Part shown: positions 12,098-37,405 of the stretch, in pieces
Position numbering within the stretch: position 1 is the stretch's first letter
Layout: the number at the start of each line of letters is the position of its first letter
DNA from: an uncultured Hormoscilla sp.
GTDB lineage: Bacteria > Cyanobacteriota > Cyanobacteriia > Cyanobacteriales > Desertifilaceae
Length of the DNA: 42,313 nt
Reading direction: 5' to 3'
Assembly (NCBI GenBank): GCA_963921275.4
Contig: CAWUFA030000005.1
Coordinates: 1-42,313 of the forward strand
Position numbers and translations under genes: made by a program
Notes under the pieces: generated by a model
Seen by the model: only the letters and a program-made list of their open reading frames with translations
Told to the model about the DNA's origin: nothing
Database searches by the model: none

Positions 12098-12549
12098 AGA
12101 TTAATCAGGCCGGCCTCGACATTATTAAACAGTTCGAGGGCTTTTCGGCAACCCCGTATTTGTGCCCGGCCGGTTACCCCACAATCGGCTACGGTTCCAT
12201 ATGGGACCTGGAGGGCAACCGGCTGACGATAGATTCCCCTGAAGTGACCGAGGCCGAGGCCGATACCCTGCTTGCCCGGGAATGCCGTCACGCTGAACGG
12301 ACGGTCACTCGACTGGTGCGGGTGCCGCTGAACGGAAACCAGTTCAGCGCTCTAGTTTCGTTCACGTACAATCTGGGAAGCGGTAACCTGCAATCGAGCA
12401 CGCTTCGCATGAAGCTGAACCGGGGTGATTACGCAGGTGCGGCGGACGAGTTTCCGAAATGGCGCAGGGCTGGCGGGCGGATACTCAAGGGCCTTGTTAG
12501 AAGGCGGGCAGCTGAACAGGCGTTGTTTAAAAAAGAACCCTCGCCGTAG
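12094..12549 (+). CDS. Endolysin, GH24 lysozyme
   Basis: IKQFEG....PY.CPAG.PTIGYG, QF.ALVSF.YNLG and GLVRRR.AE motifs. Confidence 0.95.
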   Translation: MKINQAGLDIIKQFEGFSATPYLCPAGYPTIGYGSIWDLEGNRLTIDSPEVTEAEADTLLARECRHAERTVTRLVRVPLNGNQFSALVSFTYNLGSGNLQSSTLRMKLNRGDYAGAADEFPKWRRAGGRILKGLVRRRAAEQALFKKEPSP

Positions 12550-12557
12550 CGAGGGTC
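12529..12557 (-). terminator. Intrinsic terminator of cassette A
   Basis: accctcgc-cgta-gcgagggt hairpin preceded by an A tract on the + strand. Confidence 0.7.
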
Positions 12558-12584
12558 AAGGTTCCACAGGGAGAAAGGTAAAAA

Positions 12585-12824
12585 TTAACAGAAATGCTTT
12601 TTTAATTCAACAAAAACTTCTTCTAACATTTCGTTGTATTCTTTTTCTTGAAACATTGCTGGAAGCGGTTCGGAATATTCTTCAACCTGATTCATAAGAG
12701 CTTCGTTCAGGACTTCTTCAATATTTTCTTTATCGGTCAAGTCCAAAAGAGCAACCGAGCGGCGGGTTATTTCATACAAGTCTTCGGCATAGGGTCTTTG
12801 TTCAAATTTCAATTCGTAAAACAT
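12585..12824 (-). CDS. Small acidic cassette protein (paralog of 33098..33355)
   Basis: TGGAG RBS, own promoter, ~20 D/E in 79 aa. Confidence 0.75.
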   Translation of the reverse strand: MFYELKFEQRPYAEDLYEITRRSVALLDLTDKENIEEVLNEALMNQVEEYSEPLPAMFQEKEYNEMLEEVFVELKKHFC

Positions 12825-12870
12825 TTTTCACTCCAGTTTGATGCGGGGCCATTTCCCGGCTGATAGAAAC

Positions 12871-12960
12871 ACTATAATACGAGGTGTTGTTTTTGTCAAC
12901 AAAAAACACACCTTTTTTCGCATTAAACTGCTTGACATGGAAAGCACTTTAATATATAAA
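12871..12960. promoter_or_regulatory. Divergent sigma70-like promoter pair (cassette A)
   Basis: Minus strand TTGACA-17-TATAGT; plus strand TTGACA(12932)-17-TATAAA(12955). Confidence 0.8.
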
Positions 12961-13007
12961 CAACAGAATCAGTGAAATGGTTTCGCTGAACATGATGGAG
13001 AAGATTG

Positions 13008-13277
13008 ATGAACAAGTACGAATTTTATAAAGAAGTAACGACCCCTGATCATATAACAGAAGATGCCGCTGTTCTTCTAGCTGCCGAAGCTTACGAATCA
13101 GGGTTGTTTAAAAGCAATGGAAGGCCTTTAACGAAACACCAGTTGAAGTGCATGATTCAAGAAGATTGGACGATGCCGCAGTATGTAAAAGTCTCAATGG
13201 AAAAAAATTGGACGCAAGACATTCTTCCTGATGATGTAAGAACAGCTGTAAAAGTTGCCGCATTACGATACCAATAA
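13008..13277 (+). CDS. Small hypothetical cassette protein
   Basis: TGGAG RBS, own promoter and terminator. Confidence 0.7.
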   Translation: MNKYEFYKEVTTPDHITEDAAVLLAAEAYESGLFKSNGRPLTKHQLKCMIQEDWTMPQYVKVSMEKNWTQDILPDDVRTAVKVAALRYQ

Positions 13278-13297
13278 TTGCCTTTATCTGTAAACTG

Positions 13298-13325
13298 AAC
13301 CCCGCCCTTGAGCGGGGTTTTTTTT
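13298..13325 (+). terminator. Intrinsic terminator
   Basis: aaccccgc-ccttga-gcggggtt followed by a T tract. Confidence 0.85.
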
Positions 13326-13362
13326 CGTGCACTGCACTTCATCACTGTTTATAATCTGGAGT

Positions 13363-15132
13363 ATGGCGGTTATCGACAATCTCTTCGTTCGGCTAGGCTG
13401 GAAGTATGATCCGAGAGGATTAAAGAAATTCCAGAACGGGATTGAGCGCGTTCGTGGCCGGCTTGACGGAATGAGGAATGCCCTCGCTGTTCCAGGCGCG
13501 GCCCTGACTGCGGGCCTTGGAATCATCGGCAAAAACATATACGACTTTGAGAAATCCATGCGGGTGCTTCAGGCTACGAGTCAAGCAACGGGTAAAGACT
13601 TTGAAGCAATGCGAAAGCAGGCTCGTGAGCTTGGAGCAACGACAGAGTTTTCGGCGACCGACGCCGCCAACGCTCAGGTCCTTCTTGCTCAAGCAGGTTT
13701 TAAAACTAATCAGATTTTGAAAGCGACGCCGACCATTCTGAACCTTGCAAGTGCAGGACAATTGAGTATGGCCGAGGCTTCAGAATTAGCCGCCAACCAG
13801 ATCAACGCCTTCGGACTGGATGTTTCAGAGGTTAGAAGGGTTGCCGATGTTATGGCGGAGGCGGCCCGTTCTGCTAACACGACCGTGAAACAATTAGGAC
13901 CTGCGTTCAGACAGGTAGCACCGCTTGCCGCTAAACTAGGATTAAATATCGAAAGAACGGCGTCGATGATAGCGGTCCTTCGTAACAACGGTCTCAAGGC
14001 TGAACAAGCAGGCACAGCACTGAGGGCGATTTTTTCACGGCTACAGAAGCCGACCACAGATGCCGCCAACGCCATGAGAGAATTAGGGCTGGACTCCGAA
14101 GAGATTTTTGCCCTCGCTCAAGCCGGAAAGGTTGAAGCGGTATTCAGGAAATTAGGCAAAGCGGGATTAACAACAGCGGGAGCTATTAGAATATTCGGGG
14201 AGGAAGCGGGCGTCGGTGCTATTATCATGACGGAGCAAATTGCGAAGACCGAGGCCCTAACTGAAAAGTTTGGTGACGCCGCTGGAACAGCTGAAGAAAT
14301 GTCTCGTATCCAGAATGAGGGGCTGGTCGGAGCCATAAGAAATGTCATAAGTCGGATTGTTGAAATGCAGTTAGCACTCGGCGATTCGGGGTTGACAAAG
14401 TACATTCAGATTGCCGCTAACTGGTTAGGGAAATTTGCAGACTGGTTTCGAACCTCACCAAGATGGTTGAAGAATTTCATCTCGATTTTACTCATTGCGG
14501 GCCCTGTTCTGCTTGGATTGGTCGGAACGATCGGGCTTTTGTCTGTTGCGCTTGGAGCTCTTGGCGTCACGCTTAATCTAGCATTCGGCTGGTGGCTGAT
14601 TGGTATTCTTGCAGTCGTGGCGGCGGCGGTTTCACTGGTTACGTATTGGGATGAAATCGTTGCGTATTTTCAGTCGTTCAATGCAGAATTAAAAGACCTG
14701 ATTGGTTTTAATTTTACCGATAACCCTCTCGTTAATAGCTTCAAGTTTTTCATCGGCCTTCTGTCTGACGCGTGGGAAATTTTAACAAACATCGGTGGAT
14801 GGATTGCGAGTATCACAGGCGTTTCCGGTCTGTTCGATGACTGGTTCGGAGACCCTGAACGGGGATCAGCACTGGAGCGGTCTGGAGGCGAAGAACAAGG
14901 ATTTTGGAGACGAGTCATATCAGGCGGGGATAAGCGCCTTGCCGGTGAAACACCAGCCCCGCCTTCCAATTCAACAGCGAACACAAACACCGACAACAGT
15001 GTTCAAGTAGGTGAAATTAAAGTCACGACACCAGCTACCGATGGAAGGAGCTTCGCCCGTGAAATGTTAGAGGGCTTGAGGTCCGAAAACCTGAACGCCG
15101 TTGATGCTTTTGATTCGGAAGTCGCCGCATGA
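13363..15132 (+). CDS. Tail tape measure protein (TP901-family core)
   Basis: A.ELGATTEFSA.DAA.AQ..LAQAG, ADV.A.AA..ANT and G..AGTALR motifs; hydrophobic C-terminal region; GGAG RBS. Confidence 0.92.
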   Translation: MAVIDNLFVRLGWKYDPRGLKKFQNGIERVRGRLDGMRNALAVPGAALTAGLGIIGKNIYDFEKSMRVLQATSQATGKDFEAMRKQARELGATTEFSATDAANAQVLLAQAGFKTNQILKATPTILNLASAGQLSMAEASELAANQINAFGLDVSEVRRVADVMAEAARSANTTVKQLGPAFRQVAPLAAKLGLNIERTASMIAVLRNNGLKAEQAGTALRAIFSRLQKPTTDAANAMRELGLDSEEIFALAQAGKVEAVFRKLGKAGLTTAGAIRIFGEEAGVGAIIMTEQIAKTEALTEKFGDAAGTAEEMSRIQNEGLVGAIRNVISRIVEMQLALGDSGLTKYIQIAANWLGKFADWFRTSPRWLKNFISILLIAGPVLLGLVGTIGLLSVALGALGVTLNLAFGWWLIGILAVVAAAVSLVTYWDEIVAYFQSFNAELKDLIGFNFTDNPLVNSFKFFIGLLSDAWEILTNIGGWIASITGVSGLFDDWFGDPERGSALERSGGEEQGFWRRVISGGDKRLAGETPAPPSNSTANTNTDNSVQVGEIKVTTPATDGRSFAREMLEGLRSENLNAVDAFDSEVAA

Positions 15133-15668
15133 TATTCGATCCAGATTTCGCATTGTTTGCCTATCAACAACCGACGACCATAGCGGCCATTCCTGGAATC
15201 ACGGGCTTCGTTTCAATCAATCACTCGATCGGTATGGGATCAACCGAATATCCTGTTGAAACAGGCTCAACACTAACCGACAACGCTGTCGCAAAACGGA
15301 AACGGTTGTCGTTGAGGGGATGGGTTGCGGACTTGACTTATTTGGAAGGGTCGAACCTTCCAGATCACTCAACGGCTGCCGATGTGTGGCAACGAATTCT
15401 TCAACTCTTTGAGCAACGAAACCTGATTGAAGTCGTTACGCGGCTCGGTGTTTATACGGATATGCTTATAACAAGCGCCGCCACGAAAGACGATGTAAAC
15501 ACCAGGCGGGGCCTTAGATTCAATCTGGAGGCTACGCAAATTTTAACCAGTCAATCGACTATAACCAGCCTCTCGGCCGGCATTGTGAACCCGAATGGCC
15601 CCGCCGCCCAAAGAACAGCAATCGTTGATGGTGGTCAAAGGTCTGCACCTCAATACACTGGGCGATAA
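15129..15668 (+). CDS. Baseplate/Dit-like tail protein
   Basis: TEYPVE.GS...DNA and V.TRLGVY.DMLI motifs; follows the tape measure gene. Confidence 0.75.
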   Translation: MIFDPDFALFAYQQPTTIAAIPGITGFVSINHSIGMGSTEYPVETGSTLTDNAVAKRKRLSLRGWVADLTYLEGSNLPDHSTAADVWQRILQLFEQRNLIEVVTRLGVYTDMLITSAATKDDVNTRRGLRFNLEATQILTSQSTITSLSAGIVNPNGPAAQRTAIVDGGQRSAPQYTGR

Positions 15669-15670
15669 CG

Positions 15671-15940
15671 ATGCAGCGGGTTCCTATCACTTCCGATCTA
15701 CGGCAACGGTTCCAGACTACCCTTGGAGAAATTTCATATAACTTTGAAATATGGTGGCAGCCGTCCGATGAAAATTGGTACTTTTCGATTGATCAGATTC
15801 TATCAGGGGCCCGCATTGTTGAAGGCGGCGAATACCTCAAAAACAACTTGAGCTTTCCGGGTTTCCTATCGATTGAAGGCACAGGCCCGCTTAAAACAGA
15901 CGCCTGGGAAACAACTCACGCGATGGTCTTTAACCCGTGA
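15671..15940 (+). CDS. Small baseplate protein
   Basis: M..VP......Q.F.TTLG...Y....W......WY pattern; synteny. Confidence 0.65.
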   Translation: MQRVPITSDLRQRFQTTLGEISYNFEIWWQPSDENWYFSIDQILSGARIVEGGEYLKNNLSFPGFLSIEGTGPLKTDAWETTHAMVFNP

Positions 15941-16794
15941 CTCGTCTATTCCTCAGAAGGGTCGAAGTAACAATCGGTCTGGGAAACGAAGCCCTGATAA
16001 TAGACCCGACAAACTTCATAACGTTCGATATTGATAGGACCGCTTCCGACACTCCCGCAACCGGTAAAGTCGAGATATATAACCTACGAGAAGATAACGA
16101 GACTAGAGTTCGGCGGCGTGGAATCAATCTACAATTAAGCGCTGGATATGAGGGACGCTTCGGGCTTTTATTTTCTGGCGATATCACGAAGGTTGACAGA
16201 GAGAGGGAGGGGCTGGACCGAAAGATTGTCGTGACAGTTGGCGGTGCCATTGAACAAAGAACAAGGGCGATATTCAGTTTTTCTTATGCGGGCACCACAC
16301 CAGTTAAGCAAATCGTGAAGGATATCGCAAAAAGTTTTGACGGGTTGACTCTCGGACCGCTGGACTTAATCACTGACGCGGATGTTGAAGAAGATTACCA
16401 ATACGACGGATTTGCGAGCCACGCCCTGAACGGCGTTTTGAACCCGCGCGGGCTCAGATGGTATGAAGATAACGGCAAAATTAGAATAGCGAAAAATCAA
16501 AGTGCCGCTCCAGACAGGCCTTCAGGGGTTGTCGTAATTAGTGAAAAAACAGGAATGATCGGCACGCCTACATTGACTGACGAGGGCGCAAAAATCGAAA
16601 CCCTAATTGATCACAGACTTGAGCTGGAGGGCGTTGTTGAAGTTCAGTCTGAGATATTAAACGAAGGACCTAACGCTGTGAACCCTCGTGCACTTGAGAC
16701 TATCGGTAATCATAAGATTATCGGGCTTCGTCATTCAGGTGATAACCGTGAAGGCGATTTCAAAACTGAATTAAACTTAAGGCGGTTTCAATGA
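15937..16794 (+). CDS. Baseplate hub protein
   Basis: ITFDI, VEIYNL, L.AGY....GL.F.G.I and TGMIG.P motifs. Confidence 0.8.
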   Translation: MTRLFLRRVEVTIGLGNEALIIDPTNFITFDIDRTASDTPATGKVEIYNLREDNETRVRRRGINLQLSAGYEGRFGLLFSGDITKVDREREGLDRKIVVTVGGAIEQRTRAIFSFSYAGTTPVKQIVKDIAKSFDGLTLGPLDLITDADVEEDYQYDGFASHALNGVLNPRGLRWYEDNGKIRIAKNQSAAPDRPSGVVVISEKTGMIGTPTLTDEGAKIETLIDHRLELEGVVEVQSEILNEGPNAVNPRALETIGNHKIIGLRHSGDNREGDFKTELNLRRFQ

Positions 16795-17381
16795 GTAACC
16801 GAAACAGGGAGGCGAACGAATCCAGTCTCGTCTATACACTCAATTTTTCGTTCAGACAATTGATGAAAAATATCAATACCGCCACGCCTGGAATAGTCGA
16901 ATCTTATCAACCAACAGTCAAAAGGGCTGTCGTCAGACCTGCGTTACGACTGGTAAAAACTGATGGGACTCAAATAGACCGCGCCCCGATTGCTAATGTT
17001 CCAGTGTTGCAGCCCTCGGCAGGCGGGTTCATGGTTAACTTGCCGATCACTCCAGGCGATGCCGTCATGTTGCTGTTCAGTCAACGAGGATTGGCCGCTT
17101 TCAAAAAGACCTATCAGAACAGCACACCTACGGCGTCGTCGTTCTTCTCGTCCACGGATGCTGTTGCGCTTCCAGGGTTCGGCGGGCTCAATGTGAGACC
17201 CGCTACTACTCAAGGGGTGTCGGTGCAGTCTGAGAATGGTGTTGATTTTGTTTCTGTTGAACGAGGGCGGGTTACAGTTAAAACACCTGGAGCGGTTTCA
17301 ATTGATTGCGGTACACTGGATATTAAGGCGAGCGGGAATATTAATATCAGGGGTGCTCGGATCGGGCTAAACGATCCATAA
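16791..17381 (+). CDS. Baseplate central spike (Gp138-like)
   Basis: INTATPG.V.SY, V.P and NVPV.....GGF....P...GD.V.L.FSQR motifs; short beta-helix C-terminus. Confidence 0.85.
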   Translation: MSNRNREANESSLVYTLNFSFRQLMKNINTATPGIVESYQPTVKRAVVRPALRLVKTDGTQIDRAPIANVPVLQPSAGGFMVNLPITPGDAVMLLFSQRGLAAFKKTYQNSTPTASSFFSSTDAVALPGFGGLNVRPATTQGVSVQSENGVDFVSVERGRVTVKTPGAVSIDCGTLDIKASGNINIRGARIGLNDP

Positions 17382-17405
17382 GAAAAGGCCCCGAAAAGGG
17401 GCCTG
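17380..17405 (-). terminator. Intrinsic terminator of cassette B
   Basis: aggcccc-gaaaa-ggggcct hairpin between convergent genes. Confidence 0.75.
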
Positions 17406-17409
17406 ATCT

Positions 17410-17655
17410 TTATGCAACTTGCGGGGTGAATTTTCGTCTGATCCATTTCGGGGCTGGCGTGTGATTCCAGTCGTAGTCTTCCTCGAAATTAAATTTGAGT
17501 TTGTGCTTCATTCTGAATTCTAAAAACTGCTTAAGCCCTTCAGGGTAGCGGGTCTGCGAAATCATAAACTTAATATCACGGGCGGCAATCGGCTTTCCCC
17601 AAAGCGTAAACAGTCTAGAATCAGCGGCAGCTTTTGCTATGTCATTCGTTTTCAT
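17410..17655 (-). CDS. Small hypothetical cassette protein
   Basis: TGGAGA RBS inside the repeated leader. Confidence 0.75.
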   Translation of the reverse strand: MKTNDIAKAAADSRLFTLWGKPIAARDIKFMISQTRYPEGLKQFLEFRMKHKLKFNFEEDYDWNHTPAPKWIRRKFTPQVA

Positions 17656-17659
17656 TTTT

Positions 17660-17716
17660 TTCTCCAGTTGCGGGGATCATTCCCCTGGTTGAAGGGGGGC
17701 CTTCGGCCCCCCGGTT
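17660..17716 (-). repeat. 57-nt double-hairpin intercistronic repeat, copy 1
   Basis: 54/57 identical to 22942..22998; differences only in the hairpin loop. Confidence 0.95.
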
Positions 17717-17717
17717 T

Positions 17718-17882
17718 TTAAACTCTATCTTGAGGAACAGGCTGCGGGTAAACTTCACAGGCTTGTTCGTAGGCTTCAACCATTTCAGCTCGGCTCATTT
17801 TGGGATAGCTTTTTTGAACAGGCTGCTGAGTGTAAGCGTCCAAGGCTCGGACAACTTCTTCTCTATATTTACTCGTCCACAT
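17718..17882 (-). CDS. Small hypothetical cassette protein (MWTSKY..., 54 aa)
   Basis: TGGAGAG RBS upstream of the ATG at 17882; downstream of the cassette promoter. Confidence 0.65.
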   Translation of the reverse strand: MWTSKYREEVVRALDAYTQQPVQKSYPKMSRAEMVEAYEQACEVYPQPVPQDRV

Positions 17883-17932
17883 TTTTTTCTCTCCATTCAT
17901 TGTGTTTTGGGTTTTTACTTGTTGTTGATGAT

Positions 17933-17982
17933 TATATATAGCACTCGGTGCTATATATGTCAACAGAAAAAAGCACTTTTTT
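17933..17982 (-). promoter_or_regulatory. Cassette promoter B with perfect palindrome
   Basis: TTGACA-17-TATATA with A/T UP tract; ATATATAGCAC-TCG-GTGCTATATAT inverted repeat. Confidence 0.85.
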
Positions 17983-18001
17983 GCATTTTTCTTTTGTTTA
18001 A

Positions 18002-18014
18002 AATCAATGACTTA
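18002..18014 (+). promoter_or_regulatory. IHF-consensus site
   Basis: AATCAATGACTTA fits WATCAANNNNTTR; same context repeated at 32919. Confidence 0.55.
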
Positions 18015-18065
18015 TCGGAAACATGAAAAAAAACTTTGACGCCACCGGTAAAAACTGCCATCATT

Positions 18066-19403
18066 TTATGTCTTTAACAACATAAGAATCGTGTTGAGTA
18101 TAGAAGCGGCCTCGGCATCCAGTTTATCGATGTTGGTGATAATCTGATTCGGGCAACGCCGGGGGGCGGTGCCCGAAGTGTTCGGGTTCTTCACAGAAAG
18201 GTCGAAGGTGGTGGAGTCGATATCTGCCACGTTGACGGACCAGGATTTTTTGCTTGGTCTAAAGCCCGCCTGAAGCTCAAGGAAGTCTTTCAGGTCTTCG
18301 TCATTCAGCGGGTTGGTCTTTCCCAGGCTACGGCCTGGATCAAGTTGATAGTACCAAATAAGACGGGTCGGACCGTCGTTCTCAAAAAACAGAACGACGG
18401 TCCTGACGCCCGCTCCTTGAAAGGTGCCACTCGGCAAGTCTAGAATCGTGTAAAGGCGAAAGCCTTTCAGTAGTTTTTTTCTAAGTTCTATCGAGGCCCT
18501 ATCCGTATTCGACAGAAAGGTGTTTTTGATGACGACCGCCGCCCGCCCGTTTTTCTTCAAGGCGGTCATGAAGTGCTGCAAAAAAAGAAATGAGGTCTCG
18601 CTGGTTTTGATCGGCCATGATTTTTGTGCCGCACTGGTTTCCTTTCCACCGAAGGGCGGGTTCGCCAAAATCACATCGTACCGATCATCTGGCGGGTCAA
18701 TCAGGGTATTCGTCTGAACGATGTTAGGCGTATCAATACCGTGCAGGATCATGTTCATGATAGCGATAACATAAGGAAGCGATTTTTTTTCTCGGCCGTA
18801 AAAGGTCTTTTTCTTTTGCTTATTCCATCCAATTAATTTCGCTTCACGGTTCATGTATTGAGCGGCTTCACATAAGAACCCGCCTGAACCGCAAGCACCA
18901 TCGTAAACAGTTTCACCAATGTGCGGATCAATCACGGCAAGAATGGATCGGATCAATGGGCGGGGCGTGTAATATTCTCCACCGTTTCTACCGGCGTTAC
19001 CGGCTCGGTGTATTTTCTCTTCGTACAAAACAGATAATTCGTGTTTACTGTCGTCGGTAAAATCTAGTCGGTTAATCTGTTTAATAGCCGCCTTTATGTT
19101 TTCGCCAGATTCAAACTTGTTCTGAACACCCGAAAAGACTATACCGATAAAGCGCTCAATTGTATCTGGCGGGCTATCCTGAAAGCCCTGAAGATACGAA
19201 AAAAGATCGTCGTTCACATATTCAATCAGGTCGGTCCGCTTAGTCCAGTTTGACCACTGATGCTCGTTATTAATTGCGGCGTGATTGTCTAGGTATTTGA
19301 GGAACAGCAACCACGATGATTGTTCGATGAAGTCCAGTTCAGTCGTGCAGCCGGGTTCCTGTCGAAGAATGTTATCGAGATTATTGAAAATCGCTTTTGT
19401 CAT
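18066..19403 (-). CDS. hsdM: Type I R-M HsdM-like N6-adenine methyltransferase (orphan)
   Basis: EQ.SWLLFLKYLD, GEYYTPR, YDGACGSGGFL, ILANPPFGG and FDLSVKNPN motifs. Confidence 0.9.
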   Translation of the reverse strand: MTKAIFNNLDNILRQEPGCTTELDFIEQSSWLLFLKYLDNHAAINNEHQWSNWTKRTDLIEYVNDDLFSYLQGFQDSPPDTIERFIGIVFSGVQNKFESGENIKAAIKQINRLDFTDDSKHELSVLYEEKIHRAGNAGRNGGEYYTPRPLIRSILAVIDPHIGETVYDGACGSGGFLCEAAQYMNREAKLIGWNKQKKKTFYGREKKSLPYVIAIMNMILHGIDTPNIVQTNTLIDPPDDRYDVILANPPFGGKETSAAQKSWPIKTSETSFLFLQHFMTALKKNGRAAVVIKNTFLSNTDRASIELRKKLLKGFRLYTILDLPSGTFQGAGVRTVVLFFENDGPTRLIWYYQLDPGRSLGKTNPLNDEDLKDFLELQAGFRPSKKSWSVNVADIDSTTFDLSVKNPNTSGTAPRRCPNQIITNIDKLDAEAASILNTILMLLKT

Positions 19404-19540
19404 TTCGTCCCCTTCAATTTAAAACCTGCGGCGGTTGACTCAATTGGACTTGTTTAACGCTTCGGGGAGCCGCTTCATTGAGTCTGTTTCTTTTTAAGGA
19501 GATGCACCTGACGCCGCCGCTCGCCTTGCGGATTTTACCC

Positions 19541-19981
19541 CTAACTTCTCGGATCAATTGCCATTTGTCCCGTGTCCTGTTTAAACTGTGTTACGATTCC
19601 ATTCCATCCAAGAGCGGCAGTTTTATTCGCATTTAACTCCGCCCTGGATTCCAGATTGAGTTTGGTTCTAATCCAGTGAGCGGCTTCATTCTCATCGTTA
19701 GAATCAGTCCATTGTTGAAACTGTCTGTCGTTGCAAAGAATGGCCGCTTGCTGCGTCGGTTTTAAATCGTAAAACCTTCTGTGTTTGGCGGGTTTTTCTG
19801 TCGTTGCCAGCCTCGCAACTGCGACAGATATTTCTGCGGCAGGTTGAGGAAACCCGAACAAACGAACCACTTCCTCGCCCTGTTCAATCGGCACCTCGAT
19901 AATTAACTGTACCACGCTTCTGGTTTTTACTGTTTTTAAATCGGCAAAAGTGCCTTGGATTACAGCGTCGGTCATAACCAT
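19541..19981 (-). CDS. Hypothetical phage protein
   Basis: In the recombination operon; QAAILC.D..FQ.W motif. Confidence 0.65.
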   Translation of the reverse strand: MVMTDAVIQGTFADLKTVKTRSVVQLIIEVPIEQGEEVVRLFGFPQPAAEISVAVARLATTEKPAKHRRFYDLKPTQQAAILCNDRQFQQWTDSNDENEAAHWIRTKLNLESRAELNANKTAALGWNGIVTQFKQDTGQMAIDPRS

Positions 19982-20289
19982 TTTGCTCCTCGTAAAATCT
20001 CTTTTCCTTGTTCTTCATCGCCAGATATATCGTAAAGAATTGACGCCAACTCAAGCGGGTCTAATCCTGCGGCTTTCCAGAATGAAGGTTCACCGATTTG
20101 ATGTTGTTCGGCGTGACACTGATAGCAAAGCGGAACGGTTCTGTCGTCAGAAGGTTTCAGACTGATCCCGCCCTTTCCAATTCGCCCACCGAAACGAACA
20201 TGAGCAGCGGCCACATAGGGCGGGCCTGATCCACAAACAGCGCAAGGAAGCTGCCGAATGTATTTAAGGTGTTTTTGACTTCTAATCAT
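19972..20289 (-). CDS. DUF968/Ref-like HNH-type zinc nuclease
   Basis: L..IR.LPC.VCG, AAH and KP.D...VPLC..CH..QH motifs. Confidence 0.75.
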   Translation of the reverse strand: MIRSQKHLKYIRQLPCAVCGSGPPYVAAAHVRFGGRIGKGGISLKPSDDRTVPLCYQCHAEQHQIGEPSFWKAAGLDPLELASILYDISGDEEQGKEILRGAKWL

Positions 20290-20290
20290 T

Positions 20291-22567: not shown

Positions 22568-22589
22568 GGAATCCCTCCACTTATATTAT

Positions 22590-22680
22590 GAATATAAGTA
22601 TAATGGCTTTTTGGTCAACGGAAATATTTTCAATTTATGTAAAAAAAGTGCTTGACCTTTCAGGCAATTCGTGTTATGGT
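22590..22680. promoter_or_regulatory. Divergent promoter-like pair upstream of the recombination operon
   Basis: Minus strand TTGACC-16-TATATT; plus strand TTGACC(22652)-17-TATGGT. Confidence 0.55.
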
Positions 22681-22720
22681 GAAATGACGACCTAATTTAA
22701 AAGCACTTTGTTTTTTAACT

Positions 22721-22936: not shown

Positions 22937-22941
22937 TTTCG

Positions 22942-22998
22942 TTCTCCAGTTGCGGGGATCATTCCCCTGGTTGAAGGGGGGCCAAAGGCCCCCCGGTT
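22942..22998 (-). repeat. 57-nt double-hairpin intercistronic repeat, copy 2
   Basis: Matches 17660..17716. Confidence 0.95.
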
Positions 22999-23001
22999 AA
23001 A

Positions 23002-23226
23002 TTATAATTCTTGATGGCGAAAATGTTTTGCGGCCTGTTTGGCAAAGCGTTTCTGAATCGCGGGCATTTTTGCGTTCAGCCGTTCACAGGCAAGCGATTC
23101 CCATTCAGTTGCTGGCATGTAGCTGTTCGTTTTTACAAATTCGTAAACTCGTTTAAATTCTTGAACCATGAACGGCTGCCAGTGTGTTTTTGCGTATTCT
23201 GCAAATTGTTCTTTTGAAATTGTCAT
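23002..23226 (-). CDS. Small hypothetical cassette protein
   Basis: AGGA RBS, hairpin leader and cassette promoter. Confidence 0.75.
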   Translation of the reverse strand: MTISKEQFAEYAKTHWQPFMVQEFKRVYEFVKTNSYMPATEWESLACERLNAKMPAIQKRFAKQAAKHFRHQEL

Positions 23227-23278
23227 TTTAATCTTTCCTGTGTTTTTGCTTGAGGGTGATTCCCTCCCGCTGATAAAA

Positions 23279-23381
23279 TATATATAGCACGAGGTGCTCG
23301 GAATGTCAACAGAAAAAAAGCACTTTTTTTATTTTTTTTCGCATTAAATTGCTTGACATCGAAGGCACTTTATGTTATGTT
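23279..23381. promoter_or_regulatory. Cassette promoter C plus divergent promoter
   Basis: Minus strand TTGACA-TTCCGAGCACCTCGTGC-TATATA; plus strand TTGACA(23353)-17-TATGTT. Confidence 0.85.
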
Positions 23382-23418
23382 ACGACTAAGGTTCTTTTTT
23401 TTCGGGAGTCCCAGATCA

Positions 23419-23694: not shown

Positions 23695-23912
23695 AATGCC
23701 GAACCTGTAACGGTACTGGATTCGTTTTCAGGTCTGTAAAAAAATACGAAAAAACCATAACTAGAATTGAATACGAAGGCGGCTCTGATCAGGGTCGGCC
23801 TGTGATCGAGAAAAAAACCGTTACAGGTTTTACCGGCGGCGAAGATGCGTGTCCACAATGTGCGGCTGGAGCGGAAGCAGAATGGAAGTCGATAAAAAAA
23901 AGCCCCGCTTAA
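23691..23912 (+). CDS. Small CxxC...CxxC zinc-binding protein
   Basis: MKCRTCNGTG ... DACPQC; coupled to the PAAR stop (ATGA). Confidence 0.65.
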   Translation: MKCRTCNGTGFVFRSVKKYEKTITRIEYEGGSDQGRPVIEKKTVTGFTGGEDACPQCAAGAEAEWKSIKKSPA

Positions 23913-23926
23913 AAGCGGGGCTTTTT
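23894..23926. terminator. Bidirectional intrinsic terminator
   Basis: A8-gccccgctt-aa-aagcggggc-T5 between convergent genes. Confidence 0.9.
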
Positions 23927-24213: not shown

Positions 24214-24264
24214 TATATATATCACGAGGTGCTCGGAATGTCAACAGAAAAAAAGCACTTTTTT
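24214..24264 (-). promoter_or_regulatory. Cassette promoter D
   Basis: Nearly identical to promoters C and F (TTGACA-TTCCGAGCACCTCGTGA-TATATA). Confidence 0.85.
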
Positions 24265-24761
24265 CAATTTTTTTTATTCCATTCTTCCAGGGCCTTCAGA
24301 ATAGCCCGACGCTCAAAAGCGGCTTCATCAAGGACAATTTTTAATTCCGCCCAGGCCGGAAACCATTTCGAGTTCTCCGCCCATTTTTTGCATCCATTGA
24401 CGACGACGTCAGCGGGATAGTCGGAGGCGTCATCGATGTACAGGGTGACGAGTGCTTTAAGGTCATCGGCGTGCTCTTTCCTTGCATGTGTTCTTAATCG
24501 AAGAGCGGTTATGGCGGCGGCGGCTATATGTGAAGGGCAAGGTTGATCGGCGGCCTCTAGGACTTCTATGGCAGCGGCGATGTCTTTTTTGGGCGCGCCC
24601 TTAAATTGGAATCCCTTCAGTCGTGTGTCGAAACCACCCCGCTCCTGATAAATATCTTGCCAGGTTTTTACTAGAGCGGCGGATATAGTCTCGGGCAAGT
24701 GCGAAATAATATTCGTAAAATCGTTATAAGATTCAGCAGATAATTTTGCGAGTTTTTTCAC
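24264..24761 (-). CDS. Putative replication accessory/helicase-loader-like protein
   Basis: Follows the initiator; Y...L..YP.D.V....W......FP..AEL-like motif. Confidence 0.5.
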   Translation of the reverse strand: MKKLAKLSAESYNDFTNIISHLPETISAALVKTWQDIYQERGGFDTRLKGFQFKGAPKKDIAAAIEVLEAADQPCPSHIAAAAITALRLRTHARKEHADDLKALVTLYIDDASDYPADVVVNGCKKWAENSKWFPAWAELKIVLDEAAFERRAILKALEEWNKKN

Positions 24762-25621: not shown

Positions 25622-25654
25622 TTGACAGTCCGAGCACTGTAGTGCAGGCTCGGA
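25622..25654 (+). promoter_or_regulatory. Promoter/operator of the XRE regulator
   Basis: TTGACA then TCCGAGC-N12-GCTCGGA inverted repeat; shares GTTGACAnTCCGAGCAC with the cassette promoters. Confidence 0.65.
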
Positions 25655-25682
25655 AAATTATCAACATGGAAGGAATCAAAAA

Positions 25683-25934
25683 ATGATCGGTGACGCGATA
25701 TCGCACTATCGAAAACAACTCGGCATTACTCAAAAACAGTTATCTGATAAGACGGGAATTGAAAAAGCCCGCGTATGCAGAACGGAGAATGGCAAACACG
25801 AGAACATGCAGATTGAGAGCATTTTCAGATATGCCGAGGGACTTGAAGTCGATCCCTGTGAGTTGATCAAGTCGCACGAAAAGTACAATTCACCGGCTGA
25901 TAACAGGGGATTTTTGCAGCGGGTTTTTTCGTGA
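25683..25934 (+). CDS. XRE-family HTH transcriptional regulator
   Basis: IG..I..YRK..GITQKQLS..TGI....V.R.ENG ... A..L.V...ELI. Confidence 0.9.
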   Translation: MIGDAISHYRKQLGITQKQLSDKTGIEKARVCRTENGKHENMQIESIFRYAEGLEVDPCELIKSHEKYNSPADNRGFLQRVFS

Positions 25935-29423: not shown

Positions 29424-29895
29424 AATTCAGGACCTTCCACCCGATTCGCTGAAGCCTTATAAAAAAAATGCCAGAGTTCACTCAGTTAAACAAATAGAAC
29501 AAATTGCCGCGTCAATTCAGGAGTTCGGGTTCACCTCTCCTGTGATAATAGACGAAAACAAAAACGTCATAGCAGGGCATGGGCGGCTGGAGGCCGCGAA
29601 GGTTCTGAACATGGAGTCGGTACCCTGTGTTGAGGTTCGGGGCCTCACAAAAACGCAACGGCGAAAACTAGTAATAGCTGACAACAAAATTGCAGAGAAC
29701 GCAACCTGGGACTGGGACGTTCTCAAAAGTGAGTTAATTGACCTGGGTGATTTTAAAAATACAGGAATGACAAAATACGATTACGACTGGATTGTTAGCA
29801 AGGATCAATTCTATTCAAGCGTTAAAGAATATTCAGAAAAAGACTTTTCAGAGTTTAAACACAAGTGCCCAAGGTGTAAATTTGAATTCGACTAG
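29416..29895 (+). CDS. ParB/Srx N-terminal domain protein 2 with C-terminal CPxC
   Basis: Close paralog of 27950..28543; ends in HKCPRCKFEFD. Confidence 0.9.
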   Translation: MSKIQDLPPDSLKPYKKNARVHSVKQIEQIAASIQEFGFTSPVIIDENKNVIAGHGRLEAAKVLNMESVPCVEVRGLTKTQRRKLVIADNKIAENATWDWDVLKSELIDLGDFKNTGMTKYDYDWIVSKDQFYSSVKEYSEKDFSEFKHKCPRCKFEFD

Positions 29896-30901
29896 TTGGA
29901 ACCTATCAGATCTAAAATCGCCACCAGATGATGCACCGACCGTATTCAGCTGTTTCGCTGGTGCAGGTGGTTCCAGCATGGGATATCAACTTGCAGGATT
30001 CCGGTCGCTCGGCTGTCTGGAAATCGATAAAAAGATGGTTGAAGCTTATCAAAAAAATCTCAACCCCGTTCACTGTTATCATGAGCCGATTGCAGAATTC
30101 AACCAGCGGCCTGACCTTCCCGATGAATTGTATTCGCTGGATGTTCTGGACGGCTCTCCACCTTGCACTGTTTTTTCCTATGCCGCTGCGCTTAAGGGGG
30201 GCAGGGAAACTCAATGGCAAAAAAAAAGAAAATTCCATGAAGGAAATGCCGAGCAAATACTTGACGACCTGTTTTTTGACTTCATCAAAACCGTTCAAAA
30301 ACTGAAGCCGAAGCTAGTGGTAGCCGAGAACGTTCCAGGTCTTACAAAAGGATCGGCTCGCGGATATGTCAAGCATATATTTCAGAAGTTGAAGGCCGCA
30401 GATTATAAAGTCCAGATGTTCCTTCTGGACGCCGCTATGATGGGCGTTCCTCAAAGGCGGCAACGCGTTTTTTTTATAGCCCGAAGGAAGGACCTGAACC
30501 TTCCAGCGTTTAAACTGGATTTTAATCAGAAGCTAATTTCTTTCGCTGAAGCAACCAAAGATTTGCCGCCAGACAATGTTGAAAATGCGACTGAGAGGCA
30601 AAAAGATTTGTACGATAGAATCTCTCAAGGAAGGGGTTTTAAAGACATTTTTGGCGGTAACTCATTTTTTAATAACACTCGAATCAGGCCCGACAATCCA
30701 ATTCCAACAATGACGGCTCATCGAGATTTATATCATCCCGAAATAAAAAGACTTCTGAACACAGCCGAGCTAATTCGTTGCCAGACTTTTCCTGATGATT
30801 ACGATTTTTTAAAAAGGCATTCATGGTACTTCCTTGGAATGAGCGTACCGCCTAAAATGATGGAAGGGGTGGCAAAAGAATTAAGGGCGGTCCTGTGTTA
30901 A
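29882..30901 (+). CDS. C5-cytosine DNA methyltransferase (start uncertain; ORF open from 29792)
   Basis: FAGAGG, GSPPC, ENV, PQRRQRVFFIA and Q.FP..Y motifs. Confidence 0.92.
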   Translation: MNSTSWNLSDLKSPPDDAPTVFSCFAGAGGSSMGYQLAGFRSLGCLEIDKKMVEAYQKNLNPVHCYHEPIAEFNQRPDLPDELYSLDVLDGSPPCTVFSYAAALKGGRETQWQKKRKFHEGNAEQILDDLFFDFIKTVQKLKPKLVVAENVPGLTKGSARGYVKHIFQKLKAADYKVQMFLLDAAMMGVPQRRQRVFFIARRKDLNLPAFKLDFNQKLISFAEATKDLPPDNVENATERQKDLYDRISQGRGFKDIFGGNSFFNNTRIRPDNPIPTMTAHRDLYHPEIKRLLNTAELIRCQTFPDDYDFLKRHSWYFLGMSVPPKMMEGVAKELRAVLC

Positions 30902-32343: not shown

Positions 32344-32366
32344 AAAAGGGGAGCCCGAAGGCCCCC
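32342..32366 (-). terminator. Intrinsic terminator of cassette E
   Basis: A6-gggg(a)gcc-cgaa-ggccccc hairpin. Confidence 0.7.
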
Positions 32367-32381: not shown

Positions 32382-32804
32382 TTACATGAAATAAACATTT
32401 TCGTCATCGTCAATCATTTTTTCTTTGGCTAGCCACACCGGAACGTAGATGAAATCGGAACGTTCTTTGATGTCTGCGACGAAGTTTTTGTCGGCGCCCT
32501 TGACCTGGGACTTCGGCAAAATCACCGCGTGTCCGTGGGTGACGATCCGGATGGCCTTTTCGGAAATCGACTGGATTTTTGTGCAGTGGATTTTGTAGTG
32601 CGGCTTTCCGGAAGTGAAAGCCTTCGGGGCTTTTGCTTCGGCCCGGGCTTTCTCACCGGCAGGGGTCAGGGTTCCGTCTTTGCGAAGCATTTTCGGAGCG
32701 ATCCAATATTCTTTATCTTCATCAGTCTGAAGAAGATAGGCTCCACGCTGCGAGATTTTTTTAATGGTGTCCTGATTTTCAATTTTTTCATTAACGTCAA
32801 ACAT
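32382..32804 (-). CDS. Cassette protein with EKA...LPKSQ...VP.WLA small phage domain
   Basis: AGGAGA RBS, hairpin leader and cassette promoter. Confidence 0.75.
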   Translation of the reverse strand: MFDVNEKIENQDTIKKISQRGAYLLQTDEDKEYWIAPKMLRKDGTLTPAGEKARAEAKAPKAFTSGKPHYKIHCTKIQSISEKAIRIVTHGHAVILPKSQVKGADKNFVADIKERSDFIYVPVWLAKEKMIDDDENVYFM

Positions 32805-32850: not shown

Positions 32851-32931
32851 AATATAGCCCGAAGTGTCTCAACTGTCAACAGAAAAAACGCACTTTTTTC
32901 AATTTTTCTTTTTTTTAATATCAATGACTTG
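32851..32931 (-). promoter_or_regulatory. Cassette promoter E with IHF-consensus site
   Basis: TTGACA-17-TATATT, same UP tract as the other copies; TATCAATGACTTG at 32919. Confidence 0.75.
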
Positions 32932-33025
32932 TCGGAAATCTCAAAAAAAACTTTAATGCCGATCAAAGAAAAGTGCTGTTTTTTGGAGCTGGAGTTAAAA
33001 GAGAATCGGCAAGAAAAAAAGCACC

Positions 33026-33054
33026 TTGACACCGAAGGCATCTTATAATATAAC
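33026..33054 (+). promoter_or_regulatory. Divergent sigma70-like promoter
   Basis: TTGACA-CCGAAGGCATCTTATAA-TATAAC; spacer resembles the one at 23353. Confidence 0.75.
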
Positions 33055-33097: not shown

Positions 33098-33355
33098 ATG
33101 TTTTACGAAACCCCGTGGTATCAAGAAATGCCGCAATATAAAAAGGCCTTTTTTGCTAGTCTTTACGAAGAAGTTCTTTCCAGAATCACTTGGAGAGAAG
33201 CCGAAGACGATGAACAATTAAACGAATTAATGATGAAATGGTTCTTTGATCTGGCCGCTGATCAATCAGAAGATATCTACACCTGGTACGACGATGACGA
33301 AAAATTAGATGCCGACCTTGATGAAGTTTTTGAGGCGCTTTCGCTTCATATTTAA
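33098..33355 (+). CDS. Small highly acidic protein (DNA-mimic candidate)
   Basis: TAAGGAG RBS; 23 D/E versus 6 K/R in 85 aa; own promoter and terminator. Confidence 0.8.
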   Translation: MFYETPWYQEMPQYKKAFFASLYEEVLSRITWREAEDDEQLNELMMKWFFDLAADQSEDIYTWYDDDEKLDADLDEVFEALSLHI

Positions 33356-33370
33356 TTGTGTTTAAATCTG

Positions 33371-33399
33371 GACCCCGCCATTGTGCGGGGTCTTTCTTT
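33371..33399 (+). terminator. Intrinsic terminator
   Basis: gaccccgc-cattgt-gcggggtc followed by tttcttt. Confidence 0.8.
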
Positions 33400-34869: not shown

Positions 34870-35405
34870 CGTTGTCGACCTTCACCATTAACGGAAACGA
34901 ATTCCACTCGTACGCAACCCTTCAGGAAGCCGATGCCTATCTCTCGCTTGACCTGAAGCGAGGCACAAACTGGGCGGGGTTCACGGACGAAGTCAAACAA
35001 CAGCGCCTTGCAGCAGCAAGCCGATTTCTGGATGAATTAAACTGGAGGGGCGAAGCCGAAGACTCAACCAGATCATGGCCCCGAAGGAATATAACAACGC
35101 AAGCAGGAACCCCGATCACTGGAATACCTCAAGCCCTTGCCGATGCGACCGCAGTTCTTGCCGTCAACCTATCAACAGAAACAGAAGACGACGCCGACAT
35201 AAAATCACATTCCGTTGGGGCTGTTCGTTTTGATAGATTCGATAATACTCGAACAACCGAAAAATCCGAGTACTTAAAAACAATTCGTCCCTTGATAGGG
35301 AGTTTTTTGATTCTCAAGTTAAATACCCCGACCGCCTATAACGCGGATGGAGAACCGTTTTATGAAAGCCGAAACCCTTTTGGACGCTCGGAGGGAATCG
35401 CGTGA
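34866..35405 (+). CDS. Head-tail adaptor/connector protein
   Basis: SYATL.EADAYL, K...L..A...LD.L.W.G and WPR motifs. Confidence 0.75.
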   Translation: MTLSTFTINGNEFHSYATLQEADAYLSLDLKRGTNWAGFTDEVKQQRLAAASRFLDELNWRGEAEDSTRSWPRRNITTQAGTPITGIPQALADATAVLAVNLSTETEDDADIKSHSVGAVRFDRFDNTRTTEKSEYLKTIRPLIGSFLILKLNTPTAYNADGEPFYESRNPFGRSEGIA

Positions 35406-36238
35406 ACCTTCAGCAGATTTTTAAACAGGCTGAAGCGTATCAGTTTAATCTTGCGTGGGCCGACATTCCTGAACCGCAACGCGCTCGAATGGTGAAGGCA
35501 TACAGAACAGCACTTATTCGTAAAGCTGAACGGATTCCATGGAGCGGCACCGATGGAGTGAAAGAAGGTGAAGCGTACGAACGAAAACTCAAGCGGGCGG
35601 GATGGACTAGATACAAAAGAGAATTGAAGGAAGCCGTTGACGGTGCACGAGATGGATTAGACGCTTCAAATAGAATTAAAGCGGTCCGACCAATGGACCC
35701 TAACAGTCTTTTGATTAGGAACCATTTCAATGAAATACGAAAAGCAGAACAGGCGGCACTTGCTGATTTTCTTGAAAAACAATTCGGGATTAAGCTGGAT
35801 GGATGGCTGGATGATATCCCGCTTGAAAAAGCGATGCGAAAAAGAATTGCCGAGAACATAGACTTGATTGGAGGCCTGGGAAGGGAAACAAAAAACCGCT
35901 TAAGCAAAAACATATATGAGGCGTTTAAAGAAAATCCATATGACCGAAAAGCCGCAAGGGAGATTTTCGCAACGGACGAGAGGATTGCCGACAACCGACT
36001 TCGTCTTATAACCAGGGATCAGACGAGTAAAGCGATTGGTCAAATTGACCAGATTCAGCAAACAAGTGCGGGCGTGAATAAATATATCTGGCGTACAATG
36101 GATGACGAGCGTGTTCGGCCTTCACATCGTGCCTTAAGTGGACAGGTATTCTCGTGGGATTCACCCCCGCCAGAAGGACACCCGAAGCAACCAATTCAAT
36201 GCAGGTGCTACGCCGAACCAGTCTGGGAAACAGAATGA
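35402..36238 (+). CDS. Head morphogenesis protein (Mu F / SPP1 gp7)
   Basis: LI.RDQT.K, Y.W.T..DERVRP.H..L.G..F.W and HP..PIQCRC motifs. Confidence 0.9.
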   Translation: MNLQQIFKQAEAYQFNLAWADIPEPQRARMVKAYRTALIRKAERIPWSGTDGVKEGEAYERKLKRAGWTRYKRELKEAVDGARDGLDASNRIKAVRPMDPNSLLIRNHFNEIRKAEQAALADFLEKQFGIKLDGWLDDIPLEKAMRKRIAENIDLIGGLGRETKNRLSKNIYEAFKENPYDRKAAREIFATDERIADNRLRLITRDQTSKAIGQIDQIQQTSAGVNKYIWRTMDDERVRPSHRALSGQVFSWDSPPPEGHPKQPIQCRCYAEPVWETE

Positions 36239-36681
36239 CCATACAAGTAAAATTGCCGCAATCTCGAAAGCTGAAAAAGTTCTTTGCCGAGGCTGGATCA
36301 GGCGGCGTGAGTTCTGTAGAGGTCGGTTTCTTTGAGGGGTCTCGCTATCAAGAAACTGGTACACCGGTCACGACAGTGGCAGCCGCAAATGAGTTCGGAA
36401 CACAGCGAGGCATTTTAGAAAGACCCTTTTTCAGAAATGCCGTGAACAGTTTTGACCTTGCCGACTGGTTAGAAGTGAATGTTGATCATCGTAAACTGGT
36501 GATACAGCCGCCCGCTGCTAGAAGGCTCGGATTGACTGTAAAGGCGAAAATCCAGAACAGCATTAGGGAATTAAAAACACCCCCGAACGCCTCGGCCACT
36601 GTTGCTCGTAAAGGATCAAGCAACCCGCTAATCGATACTGGAACATTGATTAACTCAGTCACTTTTAAGATTAACCGATGA
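36235..36681 (+). CDS. Neck/tail completion protein
   Basis: VGF, AAANEFGT, RPFFR and PPNA..T..RKGSS.PLIDTG motifs. Confidence 0.8.
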   Translation: MTIQVKLPQSRKLKKFFAEAGSGGVSSVEVGFFEGSRYQETGTPVTTVAAANEFGTQRGILERPFFRNAVNSFDLADWLEVNVDHRKLVIQPPAARRLGLTVKAKIQNSIRELKTPPNASATVARKGSSNPLIDTGTLINSVTFKINR

Positions 36682-37079
36682 CGAAAAAGCAGATCAACAC
36701 TATTCTCAGCGGGCGGGCTTTTGGTCAACTCAAGGAAACCGCTACTCGTATAAGAACAGGGGAAGGCTCGTATGACCGAAACCGCCGGTATCAACCAGGC
36801 ACCGAAACCCGTGAAGCCTTCGATTGTCGGTCTCAACCTCTATCGGCCAGGGCTCAAGCCGAGGTTCGTGATAACACACCAGCCGGGATTCGTTATGCTG
36901 AAATGCGCCGCTTTTGGGTGAATGACGCGGCGGGCGATTTTCTTATTCCAGGCAAGCCTTCAGGCGAAGGCGCCGACCAGATTGAGTACCGAGGAATTCG
37001 TTACCGGGTGGTGTATGTCGTGGATTTTTCGGACAAGGGGTATATTGAGGCGGTAGCCGCCAGACCGGATGAAGGATAA
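36678..37079 (+). CDS. Head-closure/stopper-like protein
   Basis: G.Y....Y, QPLS and D.I.Y.G..YRV motifs; synteny. Confidence 0.65.
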   Translation: MTKKQINTILSGRAFGQLKETATRIRTGEGSYDRNRRYQPGTETREAFDCRSQPLSARAQAEVRDNTPAGIRYAEMRRFWVNDAAGDFLIPGKPSGEGADQIEYRGIRYRVVYVVDFSDKGYIEAVAARPDEG

Positions 37080-37104
37080 AAAAAGCCCCGCCGAAGCGGG
37101 GCCT
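37078..37104 (-). terminator. Intrinsic terminator of cassette F
   Basis: A7-gccccgc-cgaa-gcggggc hairpin. Confidence 0.8.
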
Positions 37105-37108
37105 CTCC

Positions 37109-37315
37109 TTATTTCTTTAAACACTTAACAGCGGTGGTATAAACTTGTGAGAGTTGATCAACAGTCAAAGCGGGTTGACGTTTTGCAAGGACGGTCAACA
37201 GAGCTTGAAGTGCGTAGGCTTTATATTTTTTAACCTGTTGAAGGGCAAGTAAATAATCAACAGCATCACGGACTTTAACATCGTGTTGATATTGTTTTTG
37301 ATCGTGAAGGTACAT
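37109..37315 (-). CDS. Small hypothetical cassette protein (MYLHDQKQ..., 68 aa)
   Basis: AGGAGA RBS, gcttgagga-aaa-tcctcaagc hairpin leader and cassette promoter. Confidence 0.75.
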   Translation of the reverse strand: MYLHDQKQYQHDVKVRDAVDYLLALQQVKKYKAYALQALLTVLAKRQPALTVDQLSQVYTTAVKCLKK

Positions 37316-37366
37316 TTTTAATTTCTCCTGTGTTTTTGCTTGAGGAAAATCCTCAAGCTTGTATTC

Positions 37367-37405
37367 TATATATAGCACGAGGTGCTCGGAATGTCAACAG
37401 AAAAA
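37367..37405 (-). promoter_or_regulatory. Cassette promoter F
   Basis: 39 nt identical to 23279..23317. Confidence 0.9.

Follow-up and report, generated by a model that had tools for sequence, protein, structure and literature searches.

Why does a phage genome carry small genes at scattered places behind what appears to be a repeated promoter, and are these genes switched on and off together? The question is raised by a 42,313-nucleotide (nt) stretch of DNA assigned to an uncultured Hormoscilla sp. (assembly GCA_963921275.4, contig CAWUFA030000005.1, positions 1 to 42,313), the whole of which we analysed and refer to as the window. A first-pass annotation had described six AT-rich islands, A to F, each with a minus-strand promoter and one or two small open reading frames (ORFs), and had proposed that they form a co-regulated early regulon with exchangeable cargo. 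We found ten small cargo genes in promoter-gene units that are spread over the genome, most of them with their own terminator. We give an even chance to the reading that these are stand-alone early mini-operons, driven by duplicated copies of two related near-consensus sigma-70-type promoters and probably shut off together by an XRE helix-turn-helix (HTH) protein through a box in the promoter spacer. The cargo genes, with lengths in amino acids (aa) and, for two of them, isoelectric points (pI), are:

12585..12824, minus strand: A1, 79 aa, pI 4.3, paralogue of E'
13008..13277, plus strand: A', 89 aa, paralogue of B2, bridged by the outside protein P0123
17410..17655, minus strand: B2, 81 aa, with one outside homologue, P0123 (49% identity)
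17718..17882, minus strand: B1, 54 aa
22721..22936, minus strand: C2, 71 aa, with no terminator behind it
23002..23226, minus strand: C1, 74 aa
23936..24163, minus strand: D1, 75 aa, weakly like the C-terminal part of the gene directly upstream (24264-24761)
32382..32804, minus strand: E1, 140 aa, no homologue found
33098..33355, plus strand: E', 85 aa, pI 4.1, predicted four-helix fold, paralogue of A1
37109..37315, minus strand: F1, 68 aa

The six minus-strand TTGACA-17-TATA promoters were borne out (-35 elements at 12899, 17963, 23309, 24244, 32879 and 37397). Leave-one-out matrices gave each of them 29-75 bits, where the best site in 20 dinucleotide shuffles per promoter reached 6-13, and no seventh full copy was found in the window (next score -1.9) or in the assembly chromosome (best 13.3). 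As annotated, promoters C and F are identical across exactly 39 nt, within which D differs by one base. Leader hairpins were seen for A (weak), C, D, E and F and none for B. The motifs of the ribosome-binding sites (RBSs) and the ORFs of 54-140 aa were confirmed, as were terminator-like hairpins 3' of A1, B2, D1, E1 and F1, with none 3' of C2. The islands are AT-rich as described, with a GC content of 0.39-0.43 compared with 0.49 genome-wide and 0.47-0.56 in 11 flanks. Units A, A', B, D, E, E' and F have both their own promoter and their own terminator; C does not. The elements of the minus-strand units are:

12871..12924, minus strand: promoter A, with upstream (UP) tract and TTGACA-17-TATAGT; spacer box 12881-12888
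12528..12557, minus strand: terminator-like hairpin 3' of A1, overlapping the endolysin stop
17935..17994, minus strand: promoter B; box 17945-17952, within an 11-bp inverted repeat
17655..17716, minus strand: intercistronic double hairpin and RBS of B, 57/62 nt the same as the C copy
17386..17404, called on both strands: terminator-like hairpin between B2 and the baseplate spike gene
23281..23340, minus strand: promoter C; box 23291-23298, leader hairpin from 23268
22937..22998, minus strand: intercistronic double hairpin and RBS of C, copy of the B element
24216..24275, minus strand: promoter D; box 24226-24233, leader hairpin from 24205
23894..23923, no strand assigned: hairpin 3' of D1, with A- and T-runs on its flanks
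32851..32960, minus strand: promoter E; box 32861-32868, upstream stretch of 77 nt 86% identical to that of B
32349..32366, minus strand: terminator-like hairpin 3' of E1, adjoining the terminase stop
37369..37428, minus strand: promoter F; box 37379-37386, leader hairpin 37338-37358
37078..37103, minus strand: terminator-like hairpin 3' of F1

The annotation had given all islands the same minus-strand layout. This did not hold, because A and E each also contain a plus-strand cassette (13008-13277 and 33098-33355). A second promoter family lies on the plus strand, back-to-back with minus copies at A' (12932), C' (23353) and E' (33026), and is joined by G+ (22652). Its leave-one-out scores are 32 for A', 39 for C', 21 for E' and 22 for G+; since the shuffle maxima are near 20, E' and G+ barely exceed chance. 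Promoters A' and C' have 39 nt in common beyond the core, and the spacers of the two families match at 5-11 of 17 positions only. Both A' and E' lead complete cassettes (own promoter, leader hairpin, RBS and terminator), which makes A and E back-to-back double cassettes. The terminators of A' and E' lie on the late strand, directly before the tape-measure and portal genes, and we infer that late transcription past them would need antitermination or fresh starts. The plus-strand elements and the pair to which G+ belongs are:

12932..12960, plus strand: promoter A', back-to-back with A; box 12943-12950, leader hairpin from 12969
13297..13328, plus strand: terminator-like hairpin 3' of A', directly before the tape-measure gene
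22590..22680, no strand assigned: divergent promoter pair G; the minus copy has its -35 at 22618 and no box, and stands before the recombination operon
-35 at 22652, plus strand: G+, the plus copy of pair G; box-like 22663-22670, antisense into C2
23353..23381, plus strand: promoter C', back-to-back with C, before the PAAR gene (to 23694); box 23364-23371
33026..33054, plus strand: promoter E'; box 33037-33044, leader hairpin from 33066
33370..33399, plus strand: terminator-like hairpin 3' of E', directly before the portal gene

G+ (22652-22720, plus strand) runs antisense into the end of C2; it has inverted AAGTGCTT/AAGCACTT boxes on its flanks and could yield a short antisense RNA or attenuate read-through toward the recombination operon. 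The description of all six units as antisense applies to A, E and F, which are antisense inserts in late operons, but not to B, C and D, which are co-oriented with the minus-strand early region. From island C, the direction of transcription continues into the YqaJ/ERF/SSB operon.

Evidence for co-regulation comes from the spacers. We defined strict-consensus promoters with the blind pattern TTGAC[AT]-17-TA[TCG][ATG] over the window. The nine sites found are all intergenic, and 9/9 carry RRCAYY at spacer positions 6-11; a looser promoter pattern adds two sites within genes, neither with RRCAYY. As a control, the broader motif RRCAHY was present in 3 of 248 distinct spacers from like promoters of fetched phage loci, a set that excludes loci selected via the pattern GCAC..GTG. 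Spacer conservation over nine units is block-like, with positions 6-14 conserved and positions 1-5 variable (permutation p 0.006); here D and F were dropped as near-copies of C, and a switch region, H, which had come to attention in part because of the box, was included. The string TTGACA-N-TCCGAGCAC occurs four times, namely in C, D and F and at 25622, before the XRE gene. At 25622 the copy is part of a 7-bp inverted repeat, in the gap that separates the 83-aa XRE gene from the divergently oriented replication gene:

25622..25664, no strand assigned: switch region H; plus side with TTGACA and the spacer 9-mer of C, D and F, no good -10; 7-bp inverted repeat 25629-25654
minus side of H, minus strand: TTGATA-17-TACAGT promoter for the replication gene
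25683..25934, plus strand: XRE helix-turn-helix protein, 83 aa, candidate repressor of the promoter family

Because the spacer box is common to the promoters and a copy precedes the XRE gene, the proposed co-regulation gains support, and the view of the islands as a family of shared-promoter accessory cassettes, similar to the promoter-stem-loop (PeSL) cassettes of T4-type phages, is itself supported. In the sequence of events that we propose, host RNA polymerase would fire the near-consensus promoters upon DNA entry, and 5' hairpins and strong RBSs would then give a burst of small proteins. High early expression would be expected from the UP tract, the extended -10 element (found in 4/6 minus promoters), the 5' hairpin and the strong RBS, and terminators would insulate the antisense units. 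As XRE accumulated it would bind the box between -35 and -10, silence the units and tune replication; this repression would let late transcription cross the antisense units. The early burst would help the phage to settle in its host, and the cargo would be host-directed.

Several points weigh against this reading. The box stands at 9/9 promoters, with a diverged copy at XRE, but all copies are homologous, and shared descent or gene conversion could account for much of the likeness; the box motif was derived from these same sites. Region H has no good -10, its core-matrix score is lower than those of shuffles (7.0 vs a mean of 11.0 for the shuffle maxima), and its dyad centre is 4 nt, compared with 3 nt in B, C and F. 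The GTG half of the dyad may be no more than the extended -10 motif, and in viral promoters at large GCAC..GTG dyads show no enrichment (76 stretches of viral contigs vs 64 for the scrambled control). Behind the box-bearing promoter C' stands the PAAR gene, whose product, as a virion component, would be expected late. No cargo gene gave a credible family or fold match, and none of the matches listed for E' was to a known DNA mimic.

The main rival explanation, which we consider somewhat unlikely, dispenses with the operator. Strong host-type promoters would have been copied by recombination or gene conversion, spacer likeness would reflect shared descent, and the units would be PeSL-like and early without a dedicated repressor. 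The near-identity of C, D and F, the 77 nt (B/E) and 39 nt (A'/C') held in common beyond the core, the generic nature of the upstream tract and the dyad counts given above would all fit. This explanation has more difficulty with conservation that is block-like (6-14, not 1-5) across both families despite spacer agreement at only 5-11/17 positions, and with a box copy that lies within an inverted repeat before the XRE gene. A very unlikely alternative makes the box an activator site, as in MotA-like middle promoters, so that the family fires after a phage factor has been made. T4-type PmSL cassettes use a Mot box (PMC4122927). The box has a fixed position adjoining the -35, and the PAAR gene and the recombination operon stand behind box-bearing promoters. 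Against this, TTGACA is perfect in all nine promoters, the spacing is 17 nt and an A/T-rich tract lies upstream. Promoters with these features need no activator.

The upstream tract itself was rejected as a phage-specific operator. Its A-tract-GTGC-T-tract was found before tRNA genes (2/4 genome matches) and at unrelated phage promoters. The same 20-21 bases precede TTGACA in 16 metagenome stretches, 10 of them from one unrelated phage group. The tract also recurs in 4 bacterial genomes and in one unrelated phage that has a promoter array of its own. It fits a generic UP element as described in PMC6501063. In an unrelated phage group (L170:5950-6050; L164-L166, L169, L171, L174-L177), nearly the same tract as that of promoter C lies at a point of divergence, and it is followed by a conserved leader and then a variable first gene. 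A fragment of an unrelated large phage (L179:3900-8000) has tandem TTGACA-17-GATAAT promoters before small ORFs, as well as a back-to-back promoter pair resembling A/A'.

The cargo had been called unrelated. This was not upheld, as the ten ORFs include two paralogue pairs, A1/E' and A'/B2. The global alignment of A1 and E' shows 26% identity end to end, is the best of 91 pairs and scores above 20,000/20,000 shuffles. B2 matches P0123 with an E-value of 7.5e-11; P0123 links B2 to A', whose alignment to P0123 scores above 10,000/10,000 shuffles. For D1 and the end of its upstream gene, the alignment score was attained by 2/10,000 shuffles, a figure not corrected for the 91 pairs. Parts other than ORFs are also reused. 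The intercistronic 62-nt double hairpin with RBS is common to B and C (57/62 identical), and 77 nt upstream of promoters B and E are 86% identical. The unit of reuse may be leader-ORF-hairpin, because the second half of the B/C intercistronic element resembles the A leader. The mosaic of shared parts (B/E upstream, B/C intergenic, A'/C') and the paralogy show copying within the lineage, and the paralogous cargo suggests that duplication inside the genome is at least part of the history. That YqaJ/ERF was the agent of copying is a conjecture. Nothing in the analysis supported the annotation's further proposals of cargo exchange between phages, for which no near enough relative was found, of early timing or of anti-defence cargo.

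A1 and E' top the 68 translated genes in acidity (25-27% Asp+Glu). Acidity has been reported for DNA-mimic anti-CRISPRs (PMC7648647), and as a lead only, A1 and E' may be considered candidate DNA mimics. The E' model (pLDDT 82, from a two-sequence alignment) has a four-helix fold with no significant Foldseek match; its best structural match, to a helical bundle of an archaeal-virus coat protein, has a Z of 8.1 (root-mean-square deviation 2.4, 75 aligned), within the common range for helical bundles. A resemblance of A1/E' to T7 Ocr was considered but gained no support from the sequence and fold matches listed. The B2 model gave no clear fold match. No credible Pfam, PHROG or PADLOC family was found for any of the ten cargo genes; E1 has two weak PHROG matches of unknown function, and the 5/10 scanned against NCBIfam had no real match. 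Homology searches returned only E1 itself among 8 candidates and, with an A1/E' profile, only A1 and E' themselves among 5 candidates. No locus of the A'/B2 family was found in metagenome or genome contigs; P0123, E', C1, C2 and F1 had no match among 50,697 phages; and atlas matches for E1 and E' were all under 0.9. A weak match of B1 (E 0.036) was dropped because it is not located behind the matched promoter. No Rfam family was detected in the window.

We next consider where the cassettes lie. On gene order, island E is an insertion between normally adjacent genes, because terminase and portal adjoin (gap -7 to about 140 nt) in 4/4 distant relatives, these being the loci with matches to both among 80 capsid-related loci; here they are 1,107 nt apart. 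The site of F could not be aligned, and A and B lie at rearranged junctions. Spike and wedge adjoin in two named tail relatives, and chaperone and tape measure adjoin in Magia; here, a displaced tape-measure-to-spike block has A and B on its flanks. The idea that cassettes mark rearrangements was not upheld, as other displaced junctions (e.g. 41001 and 3260-3329) are without a cassette. More broadly, the virion gene order is scrambled: the head block (3329-6960) is separated from portal/gp7, the tape-measure-to-spike block (13327-17381) is separated from the tail chaperone and wedge, and PAAR is located in the early region. The head genes resemble loci with the tape measure closely after the capsid, and the tail genes resemble those of Magia-type myoviruses.

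Lone antisense units with promoter and terminator within virion-gene operons, as in A, E and F, match the moron definition quoted in PMC2839356; the morons of lambdoid phages likewise sit between structural genes and often run counter to the local direction. The cassettes could be classical morons, active in a repressed prophage or a carrier state (for superinfection exclusion, defence or host fitness) and not part of an early lytic programme. We think this quite unlikely. The lambda-like XRE / O-type replication module and the presence of the phage in two samples would agree with it. One shared promoter family is not expected of morons, whereas here promoters, leaders and intercistronic elements are homologous between units; the box is also in promoter C, at the head of the lytic recombination operon; and no integrase or ParA-like match was found among 70 ORFs scanned with PHROGs.

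The window is the whole of one contig (C6) of a 7-contig, 7.03-Mb assembly. It is a complete circular 42.3-kb genome, because a 2-nt overlap joins the contig ends into a single open baseplate-J frame of 527 codons. The PHROGs scan identified a myovirus, with terminase, portal, capsid, sheath, baseplate and endolysin, together with an O-like replication protein, YqaJ/ERF/SSB, several methyltransferases and two HTH proteins. Contigs from 3 short-read runs (2 samples of 1 study, possibly the source of the window) match 12200-26400, broken at repeats, and the pieces listed from these runs hold no alternative cargo over that range. Short-read contigs break at repeats, and an assembly artefact could in principle have multiplied one. 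This is hardly credible and already largely refuted: the copies are diverged, behind each stands a separate ORF complete with RBS and terminator, contigs from two samples match 12200-26400 piecewise, and the contig closes to a circle in frame.

The phage is likely foreign to the assembly chromosome, and probably does not infect its organism, because their tetranucleotide correlation is 0.48, they have one methyltransferase in common, no spacer-length match between them is convincing, and the phage capsid gene was not found in 40/40 relatives of that chromosome. No close relative of the phage was found in the collections searched (best identities: terminase 42%, sheath 32%, capsid 62%). A portal search of viral contigs gave 72 stretches, 0 of them confirmed as close relatives, and exact and degenerate promoter patterns gave 0 matches in viral contigs. 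The 80 capsid loci and 76 pattern loci contained no cargo homologue and no matrix score >30.3 (self 55-76).

Other features of the genome were noted. A rich set of DNA-modification genes (10976-12097, 18066-19403, 26608-27516, 28536-29423 and 29792-30901) includes adenine methyltransferases, some EcoRI-family and some type I-like, together with a C5 methyltransferase, a PAPS-reductase-like protein and, next to two ParB-N proteins, a TET-associated glycosyltransferase. Three palindromic 22-nt repeats within the O-like replication gene (25243-25318) are likely origin iterons. A 147-aa ORF directly after the XRE gene (26000-26443) has a signal-peptide-like start and no family match, and is a candidate exclusion or surface protein. 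Past the tail fibre, two neighbouring small genes (2245-3030) are paralogous (32% over 76 aa) and are followed by the second HTH gene (3030-3260).

We compared the cassettes with known systems. Like PeSLs of T4-type phages (PMC2839356 and PMC4122927), they combine a repeated near-consensus sigma-70 promoter, an AT-rich upstream tract, a stem-loop, a Shine-Dalgarno sequence and orphan ORFs. The PeSL stem-loop may lie in the spacer or downstream of the -10 (same papers). Here, a stem-loop stands by the promoter, before the Shine-Dalgarno sequence and orphan ORF, as a leader hairpin in 5/6 minus and 2/3 cargo- or PAAR-facing plus promoters, and B has a spacer inverted repeat in its place. Unlike in PeSLs, the stem-loop forms a 5' leader and separate terminators lie behind the cargo, promoters form back-to-back pairs, and the spacer box is conserved. 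Ending transcription from upstream is a trait of the PeSL stem-loop; the leader hairpins here have no U-tract. The setting is a 42-kb non-T4 myovirus with 9-10 single copies over 25 kb, three of them within virion-gene operons, and not a cluster in hyperplastic T4-type regions. The cassettes work like PeSLs but by location are not members. The annotation had set clustered PeSLs against dispersed copies here. The copies are indeed dispersed, but this is less novel than supposed, since PeSLs are not strictly clustered and a few sit in core modules (PMC2839356).

The EGeRS2/Reg576 system of p576 (PMC8708921) is similar in having dispersed operons with variable cargo behind a conserved strong promoter; of its four strong promoters one precedes the gene of its own repressor, and expression is transient. 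It differs in being a plasmid system with a ribbon-helix-helix repressor and direct-repeat operators that flank the promoter, compared with a phage, an XRE protein and a candidate spacer box here. The acr-aca loci (PMC6765145 and PMC7648647) likewise combine a strong promoter, small unrelated or acidic cargo and an HTH repressor on inverted repeats, and in archaeal viruses, shared promoters of early anti-defence regulons have been used to predict anti-defence genes (PMC11065993). In contrast to both, the XRE gene here is not in an operon with cargo, and the cargo matches no known anti-defence family.

The open literature contained no paper on this phage or box that we could find, and we did not find in print the variant seen here (dispersed, bidirectional, with a spacer box tied to an XRE locus and paralogous cargo). 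We tentatively suggest, while thinking it unlikely in its full form, that the cassettes make up an establishment regulon. About ten self-insulated slots in early and virion operons would be governed by one XRE repressor that also gates replication, and the cargo, among it a new acidic DNA-mimic anti-defence family (A1/E'), would be duplicated and pass from slot to slot in the form of leader-ORF-hairpin units. If the box is an operator, it would mark the complete early accessory gene set in a phage lineage without a close known relative, and ten new small proteins, with two new families, would become candidates for counter-defence or take-over functions. If the suggestion is true, it would join the exchangeable-slot idea of PeSLs and morons with the single-repressor logic of plasmid establishment regulons and acr-aca loci.

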